The position numbers and the translations under genes were made by a program. From Candidatus Zixiibacteriota bacterium (GTDB lineage: Bacteria; Zixibacteria; MSB-5A5; GN15; FEB-12), in NCBI GenBank assembly GCA_041742355.1, contig JBGSIV010000244.1, positions 1 through 28,394 of the forward strand: a stretch of DNA of 28,394 nt, in the 5' to 3' direction. The notes under the pieces are model-generated. The model had not been told where the DNA came from and ran no database searches. It saw nothing but the letters and a program-made list of their open reading frames with translations. Position 1 is the stretch's first letter; every line of letters begins with the position of its first letter. This document shows, one piece after another, positions 1 to 7,136 of this stretch.

Positions 1-248
1 TGGATGACGCCATGCAGCACCTGCTCAACATGCGCGCCTCGGTCGGCGCCCGGGACATCCGCCTCGAAAACACCCACAGCCGGCTGGTCGAACTGGAACT
101 GGGCTTCACCAAGCTCCTGTCGGAAGTCGAGGACGCCGATATCACCAAGCTGGTGACCGACCTGGCGACGTACGAGAACAACTACCAGGCGTCGCTCATG
201 GCGAGCGCGAAAATAGTGCAACCGAGTTTGCTGGACTTTCTCAAATAG
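1..248 (+). CDS. flgL: Flagellar hook-associated protein 3 (hook-filament junction), C-terminal fragment; 5' end lies outside the window
   Basis: Flagellin-family C-terminus (RASVGAR...LSEVEDADITKLVTDL...YQASLMASAKIVQPSLLDFLK). The SLLDFL ending is typical of FlgL, and the gene lies directly upstream of fliW. Confidence 0.88.
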   Translation, partial: DDAMQHLLNMRASVGARDIRLENTHSRLVELELGFTKLLSEVEDADITKLVTDLATYENNYQASLMASAKIVQPSLLDFLK

Positions 249-272
249 GCCCCAACCATGGGAAGTGCAACT

Positions 273-743
273 ATGCATGTGCAGACTGATCGCTTCGGTC
301 CGATCGACGTCCCTGAAGGGAAATTGATCCGGATGCAGAAACCGATTCTCGGATTCGAGGATCTGGAGACGTTCTTCCTGGTCGAGCAGGATGATTTCCG
401 GCCCTTCATGTGGCTGCAATCGGTGGACTGCCCGGACCTGGCGTTCATCGTGGTCAACCCGACCCTGGTGTGCCCGGACTACCGGATCGAAGTGCACGCC
501 AAGGAGGTAGGAGACCTCGTGATCACCAGGCTCGAACAGGTCGAGACCTACGTTATCGTGACGGTGCCGGACAACCCGCGCGACCTGTCGGTCAACCTCC
601 AGGGACCGATCGTGATCAACACCGCCAACAATTTCGCCAAACAACTGGTGCTGGTGAACTCGAACTACAGCACCAGGCATCGCCTCCTCGACGCGACGGA
701 GACGGCCAGAACCGCGCCGGCATACGAAACGGCCGGAGTGTAA
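273..743 (+). CDS. fliW: Flagellar assembly factor FliW (flagellin/CsrA partner-switch protein)
   Basis: FliW motifs TDRFG, ILGFE, FMWLQS, LAFIVVNP, VNLQGPIVIN and KQLVL. ATG 273 follows GGAAG (261-265); ATG 258 is an alternative start. Confidence 0.95.
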   Translation: MHVQTDRFGPIDVPEGKLIRMQKPILGFEDLETFFLVEQDDFRPFMWLQSVDCPDLAFIVVNPTLVCPDYRIEVHAKEVGDLVITRLEQVETYVIVTVPDNPRDLSVNLQGPIVINTANNFAKQLVLVNSNYSTRHRLLDATETARTAPAYETAGV

Positions 744-820
744 CGGGACGTAGCGCAGCTTCGGACAAGTAGCGGTCCAGGGATGGACACGGCGCCGGAG
801 GCGCTCGAACACAGGAGTGT
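743..820 (+). promoter_or_regulatory. Array of five GGA-loop hairpins (putative CsrA/RsmA binding sites) in the fliW-glycosyltransferase spacer
   Basis: ACG-GGA-CGT (743-751), CTT-CGGAC-AAG (759-769), GTCCA-GGGA-TGGAC (775-788), GCGCC-GGA-GGCGC (792-804) and ACAC-AGGA-GTGT (809-820, overlapping the SD of the next gene). Confidence 0.6.
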
Positions 821-825
821 GCTGT

Positions 826-1851
826 ATGAAGGCCAGGACGGGCATGGACACCGCAAGCGCGCCAACGACACGCGGGACCAACGCGGGCGAGATCACCGGC
901 AAACGGATAGCGATCTTCGCCGAGTACCCCTCATTTCTCACCGATATCATTGCCTACCTGTCGCGGCGGAACGATGTCCGCTTCTTCGAGCGACCGACAC
1001 CGGATCGAATCGCGCAGATGTCCGGCTGGGCCGATCTGGTCTGGTTTGAATGGTGCGACCAACTCCTGATCCATGCATCGCACCAAACCAAAGGGCGGCC
1101 GATTGTCTGCCGGCTCCACAGCTACGAGGTCTTCACCGACATGCCGGCGAAGGTGAACTGGCCGCAGGTGGATCAGCTCATCTTCGTCAATGACTCGGTG
1201 CGGCAGCTCTTCGAACGGCAGGTGCTGTGCGCCACCCCGAAAACCGTCATCTATAATGGCGTCGATACGGACCTCTTCGCAATCCCGCCCGATAAGCCCC
1301 GGACCAAGAAGATTGCCTCGGTTGGGTTCATCAACTACAAGAAAAATCCCGCACTCCTGTTATACTGCTTCAAGAAGATTCACGAGTACGATCCGGGCTA
1401 CACGCTGCACATCGCCGGTACGTTCCAGGACAGCCGCTACCAGCTCTACTTCGAACACTTCCTGAAGGAGCATCCGCTGCCGGTAGTGTTTGACGGCTGG
1501 GTGAACGACATGCCCGCGTGGTACGCCGATAAAGATTTCGTCATTTCCACTTCCCTGTTTGAGTCATTCCACTACTCAATCGCCGAGGGTATGGCCGGCG
1601 GCGTGCTGCCGCTGATCCATGACTGGTACGGCGCCGAAAATCTGTATCCCCGGGATCACTTCTTCAGCGATCCGGACGAATGCCTGGCGCTCCTGCAGCG
1701 GCTTGAATCGGCCGATCGCCGCGAACTCATCGAACGGAACCGTCGGCACATCACCGACCGCTTCAATACCGCCGACCGGTGCCGGGAAGTGGCCCGGCTG
1801 CTGGAAGAGGTTCTGCAGCGGACACATGTCAACAACGAGGTGCGAGTATAA
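826..1851 (+). CDS. GT4-family (GT-B, group 1) glycosyltransferase, probably for flagellin glycan modification
   Basis: GT4 motifs VIYNGVD and SVGFINYKKNP, plus EX7E (ESFHYSIAE-GMAGG). AGGAG (813-817) precedes ATG 826; ATG 844 is an alternative start. Lies within the flagellin locus. Confidence 0.85.
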   Translation: MKARTGMDTASAPTTRGTNAGEITGKRIAIFAEYPSFLTDIIAYLSRRNDVRFFERPTPDRIAQMSGWADLVWFEWCDQLLIHASHQTKGRPIVCRLHSYEVFTDMPAKVNWPQVDQLIFVNDSVRQLFERQVLCATPKTVIYNGVDTDLFAIPPDKPRTKKIASVGFINYKKNPALLLYCFKKIHEYDPGYTLHIAGTFQDSRYQLYFEHFLKEHPLPVVFDGWVNDMPAWYADKDFVISTSLFESFHYSIAEGMAGGVLPLIHDWYGAENLYPRDHFFSDPDECLALLQRLESADRRELIERNRRHITDRFNTADRCREVARLLEEVLQRTHVNNEVRV

Positions 1852-4532
1852 TGGCCGGTAAGAAAACACGCCGTGGCCGCACGGCGACACAGCCACCCAG
1901 GCCCGCTCGGCGCCGGGTGACGCTCGAAGATCTGCTGTCCGCAATCCGGATGGACCCGGAGAATCTGACTCCGCGTCTGGTGCTGGCCGAACACTACCTC
2001 TGCGGCGACATGGGGGAGAGGATCCTTGAAGCTTTCGACGGCTTCTCGTCGCCGGGCGCATTCCCGGACATCAAGACGGAAAGCCTGTGCCATCGCCTCC
2101 GGGCCTACGGCCACGCCCATCGCCAGCAACTGATCGAAGCCGAAGAGGCCGCCTCGAAGGCGCTCCGGGTCGATCCCGAGTCACTCGACGCGCTCTTCGT
2201 CCTTGCGTTTGTGCACCTTTCGCTGCGCGAGTATGAAGAAGCGGCGAATACGGCCGATCGGTTCATCCAGGTGTACCGGTTCATTCAGCGCACCAAGGTG
2301 GATCCGAAGCAGTTTGCCGCAAACAACGAGCACCTGGCCCAGGTACACAATTTCGTCGGCAGCGCCGCCTTCGAGCGCCGCGAGTTCGAACCCGCCGAAC
2401 ACGCCTTCGAACAGGCCATCAAAGCCGACCCGACCAATCACCTGCCGTATCTCAACCTGTGCCGCCTCTACCGCCAGACAAACCAGCCCGACCGGGCCAA
2501 CACGGTGATCGAACGTGGGCTGACCACCTGCTCCCAGGTGCACGAGTTGCGGCTGGTGGCCGACTCCCTCCACAGCAAGAGCACGGTTTCGGCCTGCATG
2601 ATCGTGAAAAATGAAGAAGAATTGCTGCCCGGCTGCCTCGAGTCCATTCGCGGTTGGGTGGATGACATCGTCGTAGTCGACACCGGTTCGACCGACAAAA
2701 CGGTCGCGATTGCCGAGTCGTACGGCGCCAGAGTCTTTCACCAGGAGTGGGAAGGAGACTTCTCCAAACACCGCAACTACTCAATTGGCGAGGCCACCGG
2801 CGACTGGGTATTCATTATTGATGCCGATGAACGGATGACCGATGCGGACATTCCCTCAGTACGCCGCTGCCTTGCCGATCCGCAGGCAAAAATCATCGCG
2901 GTCAACGTGCTCAATGTCGGCGGCAAGTTCGACGAGCAGGTGACCTTCCTCCCGTCGGTGCGGTTCTTCCGCCGGGAACTGGGCCTGCGCTACGAAGGGA
3001 TCGTGCACAACCAGCTCCGGATCGACGCCAAACAGCCGGTGCTGCGCACCGGAGTGACGATTCGTCACCTCGGCTACGGTCTCTCCCCGGAGAAGCTCGC
3101 GGCCAAGGCGGCCCGGACAATCGAATTGCTGGACAAACAGCTGGCCCAGAATCCCAAGGACGCCTTCGCGCTCTTCAACTACGCACAGGTACTGCTCGGG
3201 CTCGGCATATCCGCCCATGTGGACAACGCGAAGAAAATCAAGGACGCCGCTGGACGGGCGGTGAAGTTGACCCGGCCGGAGGTGCGCGGCGAGCGGCACA
3301 TTCACCTGATGGCCCTGTACCAGATGGCCCTCCTGAACTTCCTCACTGCGAAGTACCCGGAAGCCGGCAAGTACGCCTCTAAGGCCCTCAGTTACAAGCA
3401 TGACTACCTTGACCCGATTCTGCTGTTGGGACATATCAACCTGCGCACCGGCGATTTCGACCTCGCCGAACAGTTCTACTGCCGGTACCTCGCCGTGCAG
3501 GCGACGTACAGTGAGTCGGCCGAAACCGATGATATCATCGTGATCCATCCCCGTAGCGCCCACCATGCCTGGTACAGCCTGGGCGTGATCGCCGAGCACC
3601 GCCACGATTGGGCGACGGCCCAGTCAAACTTCGACAAGGTGCTGGACGTGATGCCCGAGTTCGCCGATACCAACGCCCGCCTCGGTTACATGAAGCTCCG
3701 CGCCGGCCTGCCGGACGAAGCCGACGAGTGCTTCCTGCGGCAATTGAAGATCCAGCCCGACTCCCATGTCGCCGCAATCGGCTGCGCGCTTGTTAATTTC
3801 GAGCGGGGGAGAGTGATCGAGGCGGAGGACCTGGTGGAGGCGGCGCTCGCGTCCTGCCCGGCCGATGCCCCCGAAATCCTCCTCCATGCCTCCACGCTCG
3901 AGCAGATCGACCGCCGAGCCGAGGCGATGCGATTTGTCGACAAAGCGTTCACGGCAGAGAACCTGTCCGGCGCAAGAGGGCGAACGGCAGCGGATCTGTA
4001 CTTCCGGCTGGGCCGGTATGATCGGGCCGCCGAGTTGTACCTGGCGCTGACCAAGGCGGGCGAAGCAGACGGGAGCCTGCTGAATGACCTCGGCGGCTGC
4101 TACTATAAGATGAGTGACTTCCCCCGGGCCGAAGAGTGGTACCGAAAGGCAGTCGAGGCCGACCAGCCCCCGGCTATTGCGTTGCGCAACCTTGGCTTAA
4201 CCCGGGTTCGCCTGGATCGGACCAAGGAGGCGCTGGTGGTACTGGAACGGTACCTCGATCTGGCCCCCGAGCAGATGGAGATTGTGCACCTCGTCGGAGA
4301 TCTGTACGCCCGGCTGGGTCAGGACCGTGCGGCTATCCCATTCTATGAGAAGTGCTTACAGGTCAACCCGAAGGATCGCTTGGCGCTCTTCAGCCTCTCC
4401 GAGTGTTACCTTCGGCTGGGCCACCGTGACTCGGCGCTGGTCGGATACCGACGGGTCCTCGATCTGGACCGGGACTTCGAGCCGGCGAGTCGCCGCTTGA
4501 CTGAACTGGCCGAGCCGGTAAGAATTCCCTGA
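1851..4532 (+). CDS. TPR-repeat GT2 glycosyltransferase (TPR - GT2 - multiple TPR), putative flagellin O-glycosyltransferase
   Basis: GT2 core SACMIVKNEE..LPGCLESI..DTGSTDKT..DFSKHRN..DADE..YEGIVHNQL..HLGY, flanked by TPR repeats. ATG 1851 overlaps the upstream stop (TAATG). Directly upstream of flagellin. Confidence 0.88.
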   Translation: MAGKKTRRGRTATQPPRPARRRVTLEDLLSAIRMDPENLTPRLVLAEHYLCGDMGERILEAFDGFSSPGAFPDIKTESLCHRLRAYGHAHRQQLIEAEEAASKALRVDPESLDALFVLAFVHLSLREYEEAANTADRFIQVYRFIQRTKVDPKQFAANNEHLAQVHNFVGSAAFERREFEPAEHAFEQAIKADPTNHLPYLNLCRLYRQTNQPDRANTVIERGLTTCSQVHELRLVADSLHSKSTVSACMIVKNEEELLPGCLESIRGWVDDIVVVDTGSTDKTVAIAESYGARVFHQEWEGDFSKHRNYSIGEATGDWVFIIDADERMTDADIPSVRRCLADPQAKIIAVNVLNVGGKFDEQVTFLPSVRFFRRELGLRYEGIVHNQLRIDAKQPVLRTGVTIRHLGYGLSPEKLAAKAARTIELLDKQLAQNPKDAFALFNYAQVLLGLGISAHVDNAKKIKDAAGRAVKLTRPEVRGERHIHLMALYQMALLNFLTAKYPEAGKYASKALSYKHDYLDPILLLGHINLRTGDFDLAEQFYCRYLAVQATYSESAETDDIIVIHPRSAHHAWYSLGVIAEHRHDWATAQSNFDKVLDVMPEFADTNARLGYMKLRAGLPDEADECFLRQLKIQPDSHVAAIGCALVNFERGRVIEAEDLVEAALASCPADAPEILLHASTLEQIDRRAEAMRFVDKAFTAENLSGARGRTAADLYFRLGRYDRAAELYLALTKAGEADGSLLNDLGGCYYKMSDFPRAEEWYRKAVEADQPPAIALRNLGLTRVRLDRTKEALVVLERYLDLAPEQMEIVHLVGDLYARLGQDRAAIPFYEKCLQVNPKDRLALFSLSECYLRLGHRDSALVGYRRVLDLDRDFEPASRRLTELAEPVRIP

Positions 4533-4576: not shown

Positions 4577-4603
4577 TTAAGTTGACGACCAAGTTGCCGA
4601 TGA
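4577..4603 (+). promoter_or_regulatory. Sigma28 (FliA/SigD) promoter of flagellin
   Basis: TTAAGTTG (4577-4584) - 11 nt - GCCGATGA (4596-4603), versus consensus TAAAGTTT-N11-GCCGATAA; about 205 nt upstream of the flagellin start. Confidence 0.85.
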
Positions 4604-4770
4604 TGTGACTAAGCGATAAAGGCACGACTACGTGATACAGGCATTACAAACGGAGGAGGATGATTCAATAGTCCACGGTTCTCGTGAATCAATGAGCGCC
4701 CAGGATGGACCTCATCAACTGACATTGGAAGTGACAGCAATCTGGACAGCAACCCGAACGCCAAATAACC

Positions 4771-4802
4771 GGGTAGGGATACCCTACAGTGTTCAAGGAG
4801 GA
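4771..4802 (+). promoter_or_regulatory. Putative CsrA operator of flagellin mRNA (hairpin site plus SD-overlapping site)
   Basis: Hairpin GGGTA-GGGA-TACCC (4771-4784) followed by AAGGAGGA SD (4795-4802); same two-site layout as the Bacillus subtilis hag leader. Confidence 0.65.
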
Positions 4803-4808
4803 TGACAG

Positions 4809-6980
4809 ATGTCACTTCGCATCAATCACAACCTTGCCGCGTTAAACGCTCACCGCAATTTGGTGAACACCAACAACGCGCTGCAACAGTCCATGCAGAA
4901 GCTGTCCTCGGGCTACCGGATCAACCAGGGCGCCGACAACCCGGCCGGCCTGGTGATTTCCGAGCAGTTCCGGGCGCAGATCGCCGGCCTGAACCGCGCC
5001 GTTGAGAACTCCGAAGGTTCCATCAGCATGGTGCAGACGGCTGAAGGCGCTCTCAATGAGATCAACAACCTGCTCATCTCAATGAGAGAACTGGCGATTC
5101 ACGCCGCCAACGAAGGCTTCAACGACGCCGACCAGCTCGCAGCCGACCAGGCTGAAATTGAGAACGCCGTGGCCACGATCGACCGTATCGCGGCCAACAC
5201 GCAGTTCGGCACCAAGAAGCTGCTCGATGGTTCCAAGGCCAACATCGCCACCATCACCAGCTCGAACAACTCCAACCTGACGATCCGGTCGTCCAACCTG
5301 TCCAGCGGCACACACTCCGTGACCGCCACCAAGACGGCCGAATCGACCGCTACGCTGAACACGACCTCGCTCGGCTTCTCGCTGGCGAGCACCGACGGCA
5401 ACCCGATCAACCTGACCGAAGACATTCACAATCTCGATGTCGTACAGGCCTCTGACGTGGCCAAGAAGACCTCGGGTTCCGTGAAGGTCGCCGACGCGTT
5501 CGGCAACAACCTGACGATCGCCGCCGCGGCGACACAGGCTTCGATTGCCACCGGTACGTTCAACGCCGCGACCGCCAGCCATGTCGGCACCTACTCCTTC
5601 ACGATCCAGTACTCGGACGTGAACGAAGGGACGACTTCGGCCCAGACGATCGCCGTCGACGTTGAGGCGGGCGACCAGGCCGACGAAATCGCGGCCAAGA
5701 TCAACACCGAAATCGCGCTGAACTCGGTTCTGGCCGGCAAGATCACGGCCGCCGGTACGGCCGGTGACGGCAACGCGGTATTCCTGCAGGCGGCCAACGC
5801 CGGTGCGCAGTACTCGATCCGCACGACCGCGTCCTCCAACGACGCGACGGCCTCGTTGTTCAGTGTGGGCGCGGCCAGCTCCCGCGGCGTCAGCGACAAC
5901 CAGCTGACCGTGACCGCGACGACTGAAGCCAATTCAACCGTGGCGCAGACGCTCACCCTGACGGCGGGAACCTACACCTCCCTGTCCGCCCTCGTGGCCG
6001 AGCTCGACACCCAGCTCGCGACGGCGTTCGGCGACGTCGCCGGTGTCGCCGGCGAATCCGATGTCGATGCGGCCGTGACCGACACCGACAAGATCCAGAT
6101 CCGGACGAAGGACGAAGGCTCCGCGTACAGCATTCAGATGGGTACGCTGGGCACCGCGACCGGTAACCTCGAGCACGTCCTGGGCCTGAGCGAGGACAGC
6201 ATCGCGAACACCGGTACCGACGCCCTGATCAGCTTCGACAACTACACCACGGCGATCGACAAGGTGAAGTACGGCTCGACGTACGACCTGCAGGTTGCCA
6301 ACAAGGCCACCGGTCAGACCACCCGCGGCATCGTGAACCTTACCGTCAGCCGCGCCACCACCGGCATGAATGTCGGCAGTGCGCTGCTCGATGTGAAGGC
6401 GGCCAAGTTCGACGTCCGTCTGGACGGCGGCCCGGCCACGTCGGTCACCGCTGGCGTGAACACGACCATCTACAACGCCGACCGGTCCGAGTCGCTGGTC
6501 CTCGGCTACGGCCTGACCTCGGCGGGCGGCACCGAAACGATCAACAACGTCGACCGTTCGCTGGTCTTCCAGATCGGCGCCAACGTCGGTCAGACCGCTC
6601 AGATCGGCCTCCGGAACATGGCCGCCGGCGCCCTCGGCAAGGGCCTCGCCGGCAACCTGTTCACCTCGCTGGCCGAAATCGACGTCACGACCGTCCAGGG
6701 CGCCCAGGATGCCCAGTCTATCATCGACGCAGCGATCAACGAAGTGTCCACGACCCGCGGTACGCTCGGTTCGTTCCAGAAGAACACGCTGGAATCCAAC
6801 CTGCGCAACCTCCGGATCGCGGCCCAGAACCTGACCGCTTCCGAGTCGATGATTCGTGACACCGACATGGCGAAAGAAATGTCGGAATTCACGAAGAATC
6901 AGATTCTGGTTCAGGCCGGCACCTCCATGCTGGCGCAGGCCAACCAGAGCCCGCAGATCGTTCTGTCGCTGTTCAGCTAA
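4809..6980 (+). CDS. fliC: Flagellin, 723 aa, with a very large Ala/Thr/Ser-rich variable region
   Basis: N-terminus MSLRINHNLAALNAHRNL...KLSSGYRINQGADNPAGL; C-terminus FQIGAN...IRDTDMAKEMSEFTKNQILVQAGTSMLAQANQSPQIVLSL; strong SD. Confidence 0.98.
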   Translation: MSLRINHNLAALNAHRNLVNTNNALQQSMQKLSSGYRINQGADNPAGLVISEQFRAQIAGLNRAVENSEGSISMVQTAEGALNEINNLLISMRELAIHAANEGFNDADQLAADQAEIENAVATIDRIAANTQFGTKKLLDGSKANIATITSSNNSNLTIRSSNLSSGTHSVTATKTAESTATLNTTSLGFSLASTDGNPINLTEDIHNLDVVQASDVAKKTSGSVKVADAFGNNLTIAAAATQASIATGTFNAATASHVGTYSFTIQYSDVNEGTTSAQTIAVDVEAGDQADEIAAKINTEIALNSVLAGKITAAGTAGDGNAVFLQAANAGAQYSIRTTASSNDATASLFSVGAASSRGVSDNQLTVTATTEANSTVAQTLTLTAGTYTSLSALVAELDTQLATAFGDVAGVAGESDVDAAVTDTDKIQIRTKDEGSAYSIQMGTLGTATGNLEHVLGLSEDSIANTGTDALISFDNYTTAIDKVKYGSTYDLQVANKATGQTTRGIVNLTVSRATTGMNVGSALLDVKAAKFDVRLDGGPATSVTAGVNTTIYNADRSESLVLGYGLTSAGGTETINNVDRSLVFQIGANVGQTAQIGLRNMAAGALGKGLAGNLFTSLAEIDVTTVQGAQDAQSIIDAAINEVSTTRGTLGSFQKNTLESNLRNLRIAAQNLTASESMIRDTDMAKEMSEFTKNQILVQAGTSMLAQANQSPQIVLSLFS

Positions 6981-7032: not shown

Positions 7033-7136
7033 TCCTATCGCCGCCGCAGCATCCCGGTACCCACCGGGGCGAGCCGGCAGCCGCAGTAGCGCATGGAGAC
7101 GAACGACAGTGATGTCACGGACACGAGGAGAGAAGG

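Follow-up and report, generated by a model that had tools for sequence, protein, structure and literature searches.

The window analyzed here comprises positions 1 to 28,394 (forward strand) of contig JBGSIV010000244.1 of Candidatus Zixiibacteriota bacterium (assembly GCA_041742355.1), and all positions below refer to it. Near its start, fliW, which encodes the protein antagonist of CsrA, is separated by a spacer of 82 nt from a gene for a GT4-type glycosyltransferase, which is followed by a second glycosyltransferase gene with GT2 and TPR regions (GT2-TPR). The spacer holds six GGA triplets, and the question raised by the locus is whether these form an operator through which CsrA acts on the downstream genes, or an RNA sponge that titrates CsrA; an earlier note, made from the sequence alone, had proposed the two as alternatives. 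Judged from sequence comparisons, the spacer is probably a cis-acting CsrA translational operator on a polycistronic flagellar mRNA, acting on GT4 and on the coupled GT2-TPR, and its form with five to six sites is likely a local expansion of an element with one to three sites.

Either alternative calls for a CsrA protein, and the genome search suggested in the earlier note found csrA in the same operon, with scores above cut-off for both PF02599 (81.5 bits) and the NCBIfam CsrA model. The rest of flgL is located on contig C207 together with csrA and flgK, in the order flgK-csrA-flgL; since 8 nt are common to the end of this contig and the start of the window, with the flgL frame running through the join, csrA and fliW belong to one operon, in which csrA stands two genes ahead of fliW. 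Among 41 genomes, fliW was detected in 39 and csrA in 39, and the order flgK-csrA-flgL was found in 35 of 39 genomes, the remaining four contigs ending within flgL. R44, which marks the RNA-binding surface of CsrA (PMC7652899), and N55, which is required for FliW binding in Bacillus subtilis (10.1101/2020.07.02.184341), were kept in all 35 csrA genes read (CsrA length 101-116 aa), and this genome encodes FliW, a flagellin and a CsrA that has both N55 and a C-terminal extension. The earlier description of the array as occupying the usual csrA position is right for the textbook order, but not for this lineage, where csrA lies between flgK and flgL. Because csrA is found in the same operon, here and in 34 relatives, a spacer RNA standing in for a lost csrA was ruled out. 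A second, divergent fliW (32% identity) adjoining a second csrA was observed apart from the main cluster in one genome (G020; locus L042, G020:C295).

The six GGA triplets are located at 746, 763, 781, 785, 797 and 814, the count agreeing with the earlier note; five of them can be placed in hairpin loops, while that at 785 falls inside a stem (hairpins are numbered as in Table 1). All five spacer hairpins proposed earlier are possible structures, of which three are well supported (775-788, 791-805 and 809-820) and two are weak (743-751 and 758-770). Hairpin 1 showed pairing probabilities between 0.02 and 0.69 depending on context, and was not found at the matching place in the two same-genus GT4 spacers. 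Hairpin 3, described earlier as having the high-affinity loop form, is indeed readable as an ANGGAX hexaloop placed directly on the stem, the high-affinity form for RsmE (PMC4005645); this strict form is rare in the genome, where 19 of 3183 leaders have it upstream, and the hairpin was kept at -47/-48 in both same-genus genomes bearing GT4, with changed outer stems. GGA-loop hairpins at -28 to -33, where hairpin 4 lies, were also detected in five other genomes (G001, G014, G017, G018 and G019). Hairpin 5 presents the Shine-Dalgarno (SD) sequence of GT4 in and beside its loop, in agreement with the earlier observation, and its position is the one conserved across the lineage; hairpins 4 and 5 form well in local folds and compete in longer ones. 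The sixth hairpin of the earlier description (832-843) is present as well, but inside the GT4 reading frame. Sites 1, 2 and 6 may be minor or due to chance. Neighboring loop GGAs are 16-22 nt apart, at or slightly below the stated optimum of more than 18 nt, and the distance to the SD GGA at 814 is 33 nt from 781 and 17 nt from 797; all these distances are within the range of 10-63 nt over which a CsrA dimer can bridge two sites (PMC7652899). Total folding energy was tried as a sign of structure and discarded: that of 735-855 was ordinary (z 0.10, with 102 of 200 shuffles equally good), and the minimum-energy fold of the whole region differs from the array.

The enrichment of GGA in loops was evaluated by folding, dinucleotide shuffling and genome comparison, along the lines proposed in the earlier note, with a rule (GGA wholly in a loop of 3-8 nt that is closed by three or more base pairs) that was written after the spacer had been seen. 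None of 5000 dinucleotide shuffles of positions 741-850 reached the six loop GGAs of the native sequence (mean 1.2), and 38 of 5000 did so when all GGAs were held fixed. In sliding windows over both strands of the 4.37-Mb genome the spacer was top in three of four settings and fourth in the other, and its leader ranked first of 3194 leaders delimited with a crude gene caller; six loops were also reached by four other windows of 105 nt. The enrichment thus exceeds chance, and the spacer is a real, unusually dense cluster of CsrA-type sites. The second-ranked window, with five loops, is located on the minus strand of contig C121 of this genome, near 45820-45924, upstream of a gene recognized by eye as AccB-like; it holds a 20-nt palindrome with about a dozen further genomic matches. 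Apart from the spacer, three strong GGA-loop hairpins were found in just one leader, on the minus strand of contig C259 at 13539, ahead of a gene that resembles, also by eye, NADH dehydrogenase subunit B.

Conservation was analyzed in two sets of genomes, which are kin and not independent, so that the null comparisons overstate significance. The first set consisted of 39 genomes, 21 (this one included) with GT4 after fliW and 18 with GT2-TPR in that place; two starts were set by hand (G001 and G021), and G021, whose GT4-type frame ends at 220 aa, was assigned to the GT4 class by its N-terminal TPR region. The held-out set comprised 80 of 99 further genomes with a fliW match, of which 76 were scored and four were dropped (three contig ends and one without a start). 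With GT4 next, the SD GGA was looped in 15 of 21 genomes of the first set (7.5 under the null with GGAs fixed; 0 of 200 shuffles), and an upstream hairpin of -3 kcal/mol or better was present in 10 of 21 (null 2.2; 0 of 200). With GT2-TPR next, both were at null level (5/18 for the SD hairpin and 2/18 for the upstream hairpin). The SD hairpin was found again in 23 of the 31 held-out genomes of the GT4 class (null 13.2, maximum 19 in 60 shuffles), compared with 17 of 45 in the GT2 class (null 12.9, maximum 21). Pooling the GT4 leaders (52 genomes, 30 genera) gave the SD hairpin in 38 genomes and 21 genera, and the upstream hairpin in 14 genomes and 10 genera; in these 10 genera, GGA loops at similar places were carried on unrelated stems. 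Since the spacers ahead of GT2-TPR were at null level, the SD hairpin follows the GT4 gene and not fliW, and an element belonging to the 3' end of fliW was rejected. The conserved part is therefore the ribosome site, and it tracks the GT4 gene, which is the pattern of a cis operator.

The array itself is not conserved, relatives having mostly 0-3 loops: in contrast to the six loop GGAs of the window, 0-3 were counted in the other 20 GT4 spacers of the first set and 0-4 in the 31 held-out ones. In G001, for example, three loop GGAs lie at -48, -33 and -12, compared with -45, -29 and -12 in the window, on stems that mostly differ. The search for stem covariation with conserved GGA, suggested in the earlier note, gave mixed signals. 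For the SD hairpin, fixed-register pairing around the GGA was 0.70 and 0.61 versus 0.36-0.39 in controls, double changes occur (e.g., A-U to G-C and A-U to C-G), and in 18 aligned SD windows 59% of cells were paired (10 of 500 shuffles) with 12 double changes (9 of 500); a consensus fold and replication of the upstream hairpin were not obtained. Wider searches for related loci gave one locus among genome contigs (on a contig of G013) and 22 in metagenomes, none of the latter with more than 71% identity in the best segment. In L061 (G005) a GT4-type SD hairpin was retained within the first codons of the GT2-TPR that follows fliW, and in two held-out loci (L116 and L117) such a hairpin lies about 100-120 nt upstream of the GT2-TPR start; these look like remnants of a deleted GT4 gene.

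The leaders of other flagellar genes provided a comparison within the same genomes. SD hairpins were found in 35 of 35 fliC leaders, 18 of which also had a strong upstream hairpin, and in 31 of 35 csrA leaders (upstream hairpin in 5 of 35), while fliD leaders showed a mild enrichment (SD hairpin in 19 of 30, reached in 6 of 200 shuffles; upstream hairpin in 1 of 30). In pooled housekeeping leaders, 20 of 114 had SD hairpins and 4 of 114 upstream hairpins. The canonical loop form was present at the csrA SD in 28 of 35 genomes and upstream of fliC in 14 of 35. The fliC leader serves as an internal positive control for the CsrA design, and the csrA leader likely reflects translational autoregulation of CsrA across the lineage, in a pattern more consistent than that of the GT4 element (the csrA leader of this genome, which contains the SD hairpin, is at L001:1660-1685, minus strand of contig C207).

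Several results weigh against an operator ahead of GT4 or restrict its extent. The loop rule is lax at the SD, where it passed 869 of the 1902 GGAs of this genome (46%), and the relatedness of the genomes mentioned above inflates the null comparisons. In the held-out GT4 class a strong upstream hairpin was found in only 4 of 31 genomes (null 2.4, maximum 5), so that the upstream hairpin was rejected as a lineage-wide feature; the strict ANGGAX/AGGAX upstream form was present in 7 of 21 genomes of the first set and in 0 of 31 held-out ones, and the pooled comparison of this strict form between the GT4 and GT2 classes (7/52 vs. 3/63) gave a Fisher p value of 0.18. Some GT4 spacers were devoid of loop GGAs, namely 2 of 21 in the first set and 5 of 31 in the held-out set. 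Two bases 5' of the GGA, the conserved SD loop has U and not A in 74% of 47 leaders, off the high-affinity consensus. Formal covariation was modest, with a score reached in 26 of 500 shuffles and exceeded by a slide of -2 in the 18 windows, on which RNAalifold found no consensus fold. Moreover, the 1.5-kb flanks of ten distant GT4 loci contained neither a fliW nor a fliC match.

Part of this picture would also be produced by a hairpin over the SD that acts independently of CsrA, either as a tuner of initiation or as an element of mRNA processing or stability, the extra hairpins being a GC-rich chance extreme picked genome-wide. SD sequences hold GGA anyway, frequently looped under the lax rule, and the non-consensus SD loop, the failure of the upstream hairpin in held-out genomes, the ordinary fold energy and the existence of other six-loop windows all fit this explanation. 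We regard it as unlikely, however, since the top window of 8.7 Mb coincides exactly with the spacer beside fliW and ends on the SD, the rare high-affinity form of hairpin 3 persists in both same-genus GT4 spacers on changed outer stems, GGA loops recur at similar places on unrelated stems in one third of the genera, and the fliC and csrA leaders have the same design. The latter two leaders, often canonical in their loops, also speak against the idea that both the GT4 and the fliC leaders are read by another RNA-binding protein or by a translation factor that this lineage devotes to the flagellum. Such a factor would agree with a lineage-wide SD loop that departs from the CsrA consensus and with a conserved motif around the GGA that is particular to the GT4 leader, but the operon itself encodes a CsrA whose RNA-binding and FliW-binding residues are intact, and no other candidate protein was identified, which makes this explanation highly improbable.

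The sponge alternative takes the array to be mainly a decoy, either a short RNA cut from the operon mRNA or a portion embedded in it, as in the flaA leader of Campylobacter jejuni, that buffers CsrA beside FliW. Five to six sites at a spacing of 16-22 nt are more than one dimer needs, and sponging by an mRNA has been shown for flaA (PMC4894983); the spacer also bears a weak likeness to RsmY, in a genome without other CsrB, RsmY or RsmZ match above cut-off. That likeness amounts to 15.4 bits vs. a cut-off of 57, three other places in the genome score higher, and RsmZ and CsrB gave no match at the spacer; genome-wide, nothing exceeded the cut-offs among the candidates scored (150 of 252, 150 of 169 and 103 of 118 in the three Rfam searches). 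Promoter scans covered sigma-70 and sigma-28 types: neither sigma-70-type sites nor plus-strand terminators were found in positions 1-2000, the sigma-28 matrix reached a score of 12 or more ahead of GT4 in 0 of 21 first-set leaders (best 8.5, vs. a training median of 14.4), and none of the 21 first-set GT4 spacers had a run of five T. The array, in addition, covers the SD and start of a gene, running into GT4 codons 3-6, and shrinks to 0-3 loops in nearly all relatives, while multi-site operators are known from the hcnA leader, with five GGAs (PMC4005645), and from glgC, with four sites (PMC7652899). A discrete sponge RNA was rejected on these grounds and is probably not the case; the CsrB-like branch of the earlier note was accordingly not sustained, and a role of the array mainly as a sponge, in either form, is very unlikely. 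It is equally doubtful that the expanded array, cut from or within the flgK-csrA-flgL-fliW mRNA, acts as a CsrA sponge that doubles as a switch for flagellin glycosylation. Were a sponge present nevertheless, an RNA decoy and FliW would be used together, the decoy coming from the operon that encodes both regulators; joint action of FliW and small RNAs on CsrA in any species is given as undetermined in a 2020 review (PMC7652899).

The operator branch of the earlier proposal, in contrast, was supported by a csrA with R44 and N55 in the operon, by an SD hairpin that exceeded shuffles in both sets of genomes and by fliC and csrA leaders of like design. A GGA overlaps the SD (814-816, within the hairpin at 809-820), and a second GGA hairpin is present within bridging distance. 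In the arrangement that we propose by analogy, a CsrA dimer would be anchored on hairpin 3 or 4 (775-788 or 791-805) and bridge from there to the SD hairpin, with upstream tethering and SD occlusion as for glgC and hcnA. Bridged CsrA would block ribosome loading on GT4 and, through coupling, on GT2-TPR too: the stop codon of GT4 and the start codon of GT2-TPR share 1 nt, and gaps of -20 to +11 nt were found in 13 of 18 genomes, so the two genes are likely translationally coupled and repression would likely pass to the second. Following the Bacillus subtilis and C. jejuni models, cytoplasmic flagellin would hold FliW before hook completion and free CsrA would repress; after flagellin export, FliW would bind CsrA, and flagellin and both transferases would be translated together. 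The flgL and fliW genes, on the same mRNA, would escape repression.

The earlier note had called the two downstream products flagellin glycosyltransferases, which suits GT2-TPR better than GT4. The best natural solved-structure match of GT2-TPR was Listeria GmaR (PDB 22ao, E 1.5e-33), confined to the GT2 domain (residues 245-432), and a GT2 plus TPR protein encoded beside flagellin is true of 1851-4532 only. That both enzymes glycosylate flagellin is suggested by their position and the GmaR-like GT2 domain, the role of GT4 being suggested by position only. GT4 had 339 homologues, the named ones being mostly from Zixibacteria; it had no solved-structure relative and no NCBIfam family match above cut-off, and a plasmid search for its relatives returned only matches below 60% identity. 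It is without the N-terminal TPR region (about 200 aa) of most of its relatives (about 550 aa), a short form also found in G010 and a few homologues, while in family f2 (L034, L049, L053 and L063) the GT4-type gene encodes about 1200 aa and, in L034, L049 and L053, lies about 1.7 kb upstream of GT2-TPR. A GT2-TPR-GT4 fusion was seen in one distant homologue, and another, cut by a contig end, looks alike; the fusion hints that the two transferases act together, with no bearing on the substrate.

Table 1. Features of the fliW-fliC region and hairpins of the spacer; pairing probabilities are given as ranges over the contexts tried.
Feature	Position	Strand	Description
flgL 3' end	3..248	+	Flagellin_C match; hook-filament junction protein
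fliW, protein antagonist of CsrA	258..743	+	Start 258 or 273, stop 741-743; Pfam FliW E 9e-39; single copy in genome
GT4 leader (intercistronic spacer, 82 nt)	744..825	+	Predicted multi-site CsrA operator; six GGAs
Hairpin 1	743..751	+	3-bp stem, GGA triloop, +1.3 kcal/mol; weak; abuts fliW stop
Hairpin 2	758..770	+	Weak, +0.6 kcal/mol; probability 0.06-0.14 in all contexts
Hairpin 3, strongest site	775..788	+	Probability 0.98-1.0 in every context; readable as ANGGAX hexaloop on C-G-closed stem
Hairpin 4	791..805	+	6-bp stem, GGA triloop, -8.7 kcal/mol; probability 0.21-0.99
Hairpin 5, over SD	809..820	+	SD 813-817 in and beside loop, 8 nt 5' of ATG; probability 0.32-0.91
Hairpin 6	832..843	+	Within GT4 codons 3-6; probability 0.04-0.79, context-dependent
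GT4-type glycosyltransferase	826..1851	+	ATG 826; 341 aa; Pfam PF00534/PF13692
GT2-TPR glycosyltransferase	1851..4532	+	Profile match; GT2 domain like Listeria GmaR
Sigma-28-type promoter of fliC	4578..4603	+	Core -10 motif
fliC leader, two GGA hairpins	4771..4805	+	Strong GGA-loop hairpin 4771-4784; SD hairpin 4793-4805
fliC, then fliD and fliS	4809..6980	+	Flagellin of 723 aa; profile match

With regard to the reading frames around the spacer, ATG 844 was disfavored as the GT4 start, a homologue of 85% identity (P0002) having no Met there and the same length and start register; a small open reading frame at 783-1049 (88 aa) had no match in a Pfam search. A second copy of 741-850 was not found in the genome, and a repeat or mobile origin was thus rejected. 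The standard anti-SD is present in the 16S rRNA ends of this genome; the two 3' ends, on contigs C77 and C106, differ at several positions upstream of it, which may mean two operon types or a foreign contig. The fliC promoter lies about 210 nt upstream of the gene, the core sigma-28 -10 motif being present in 28 of 35 fliC upstream regions, and further GGAs occur at 4652-4744, between the promoter and the leader hairpins. Upstream of fliD, a near-palindrome of 12 nt (7105-7116) recurs in 14 of 30 genomes and was found in none of the fliC, csrA, thrS and GT4 upstream regions tested; it is a possible transcription-factor site.

Pseudaminic acid, which is used to glycosylate flagellin, is made by a pathway that starts with PseB. 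In C. jejuni, where FliW but not CsrB/C is present, pseB is listed under flagella formation; its 5' untranslated region was enriched 119.7-fold with CsrA, and a reporter for it was derepressed more than 10-fold in a csrA-null background (PMC4894983). In the same species, flaA mRNA is both target and sponge of CsrA, and CsrA represses the downstream gene from intercistronic sites in Cj0310c-Cj0309c and Cj0805-dapA (Dugar et al. 2016, PMC4894983). It was hence too strong to say that neither arrangement had been described, and the mechanism itself is already known. Shared with the C. jejuni CsrA-FliW regulon are GGA-loop hairpins, one of them over the ribosome site (flaA SL1/SL2), and sites between genes; here, unlike there, a pair of glycosyltransferases is encoded in the csrA/fliW operon, in another phylum and with up to six predicted sites, known from sequence.

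The partner switch among flagellin (Hag), FliW and CsrA (PMC4894983, PMC7652899, 10.1101/2020.07.02.184341) offers a second comparison. As in the B. subtilis hag system, fliW and csrA lie in the late flagellar cluster, N55 is kept and the flagellin leader has an SD-occluding CsrA site, here a predicted one, whereas the order here is flgK-csrA-flgL-fliW, with csrA not adjoining fliW and the element on a mid-operon, non-flagellin gene. Unequal GGA sites are shared with Pseudomonas fluorescens hcnA and Escherichia coli glgC, in which the dimer is tethered at an upstream hairpin and bridges to the SD site while extra sites matter less (PMC4005645, PMC7652899); those are gammaproteobacterial 5' leaders under small RNA control, unlike the present intercistronic element, which would be under FliW. 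The run of short GGA-loop hairpins and its total length, as in RsmY/RsmZ, recall CsrB/CsrC and RsmX/Y/Z (RF00018, RF00195, RF00166), from which the array differs in having no promoter or terminator of its own found, in overlapping a start codon, in scoring below the Rfam cut-offs and in being unconserved.

A flagellin glycosyltransferase with CsrA-dependent expression, through RpoN, is Helicobacter pylori jhp0106 (PseE; PMC5368276, PMC7988653), where control is positive, indirect and transcriptional, whereas direct translational repression is proposed here. Listeria monocytogenes GmaR likewise combines GT2 and TPR regions and is encoded in a flagellar locus (PMC3150276), but only the GT2 domain of 1851-4532 matches it, and the anti-repressor role is one known for GmaR. 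In a literature search of mostly open-access sources, no report on CsrA in Zixibacteria and no direct CsrA operator on a flagellin glycosyltransferase were found.

If the operator reading is true, the flagellin checkpoint would govern filament-modifying enzymes in the present uncultured lineage (Zixibacteria, judging from named homologues), besides flagellin and CsrA, and a site in the middle of the operon would let genes of one mRNA be translated at different times. Operator strength would range from none to six sites among relatives, and a direct glycosyltransferase target and a new phylum would be added to the CsrA-FliW circuit.

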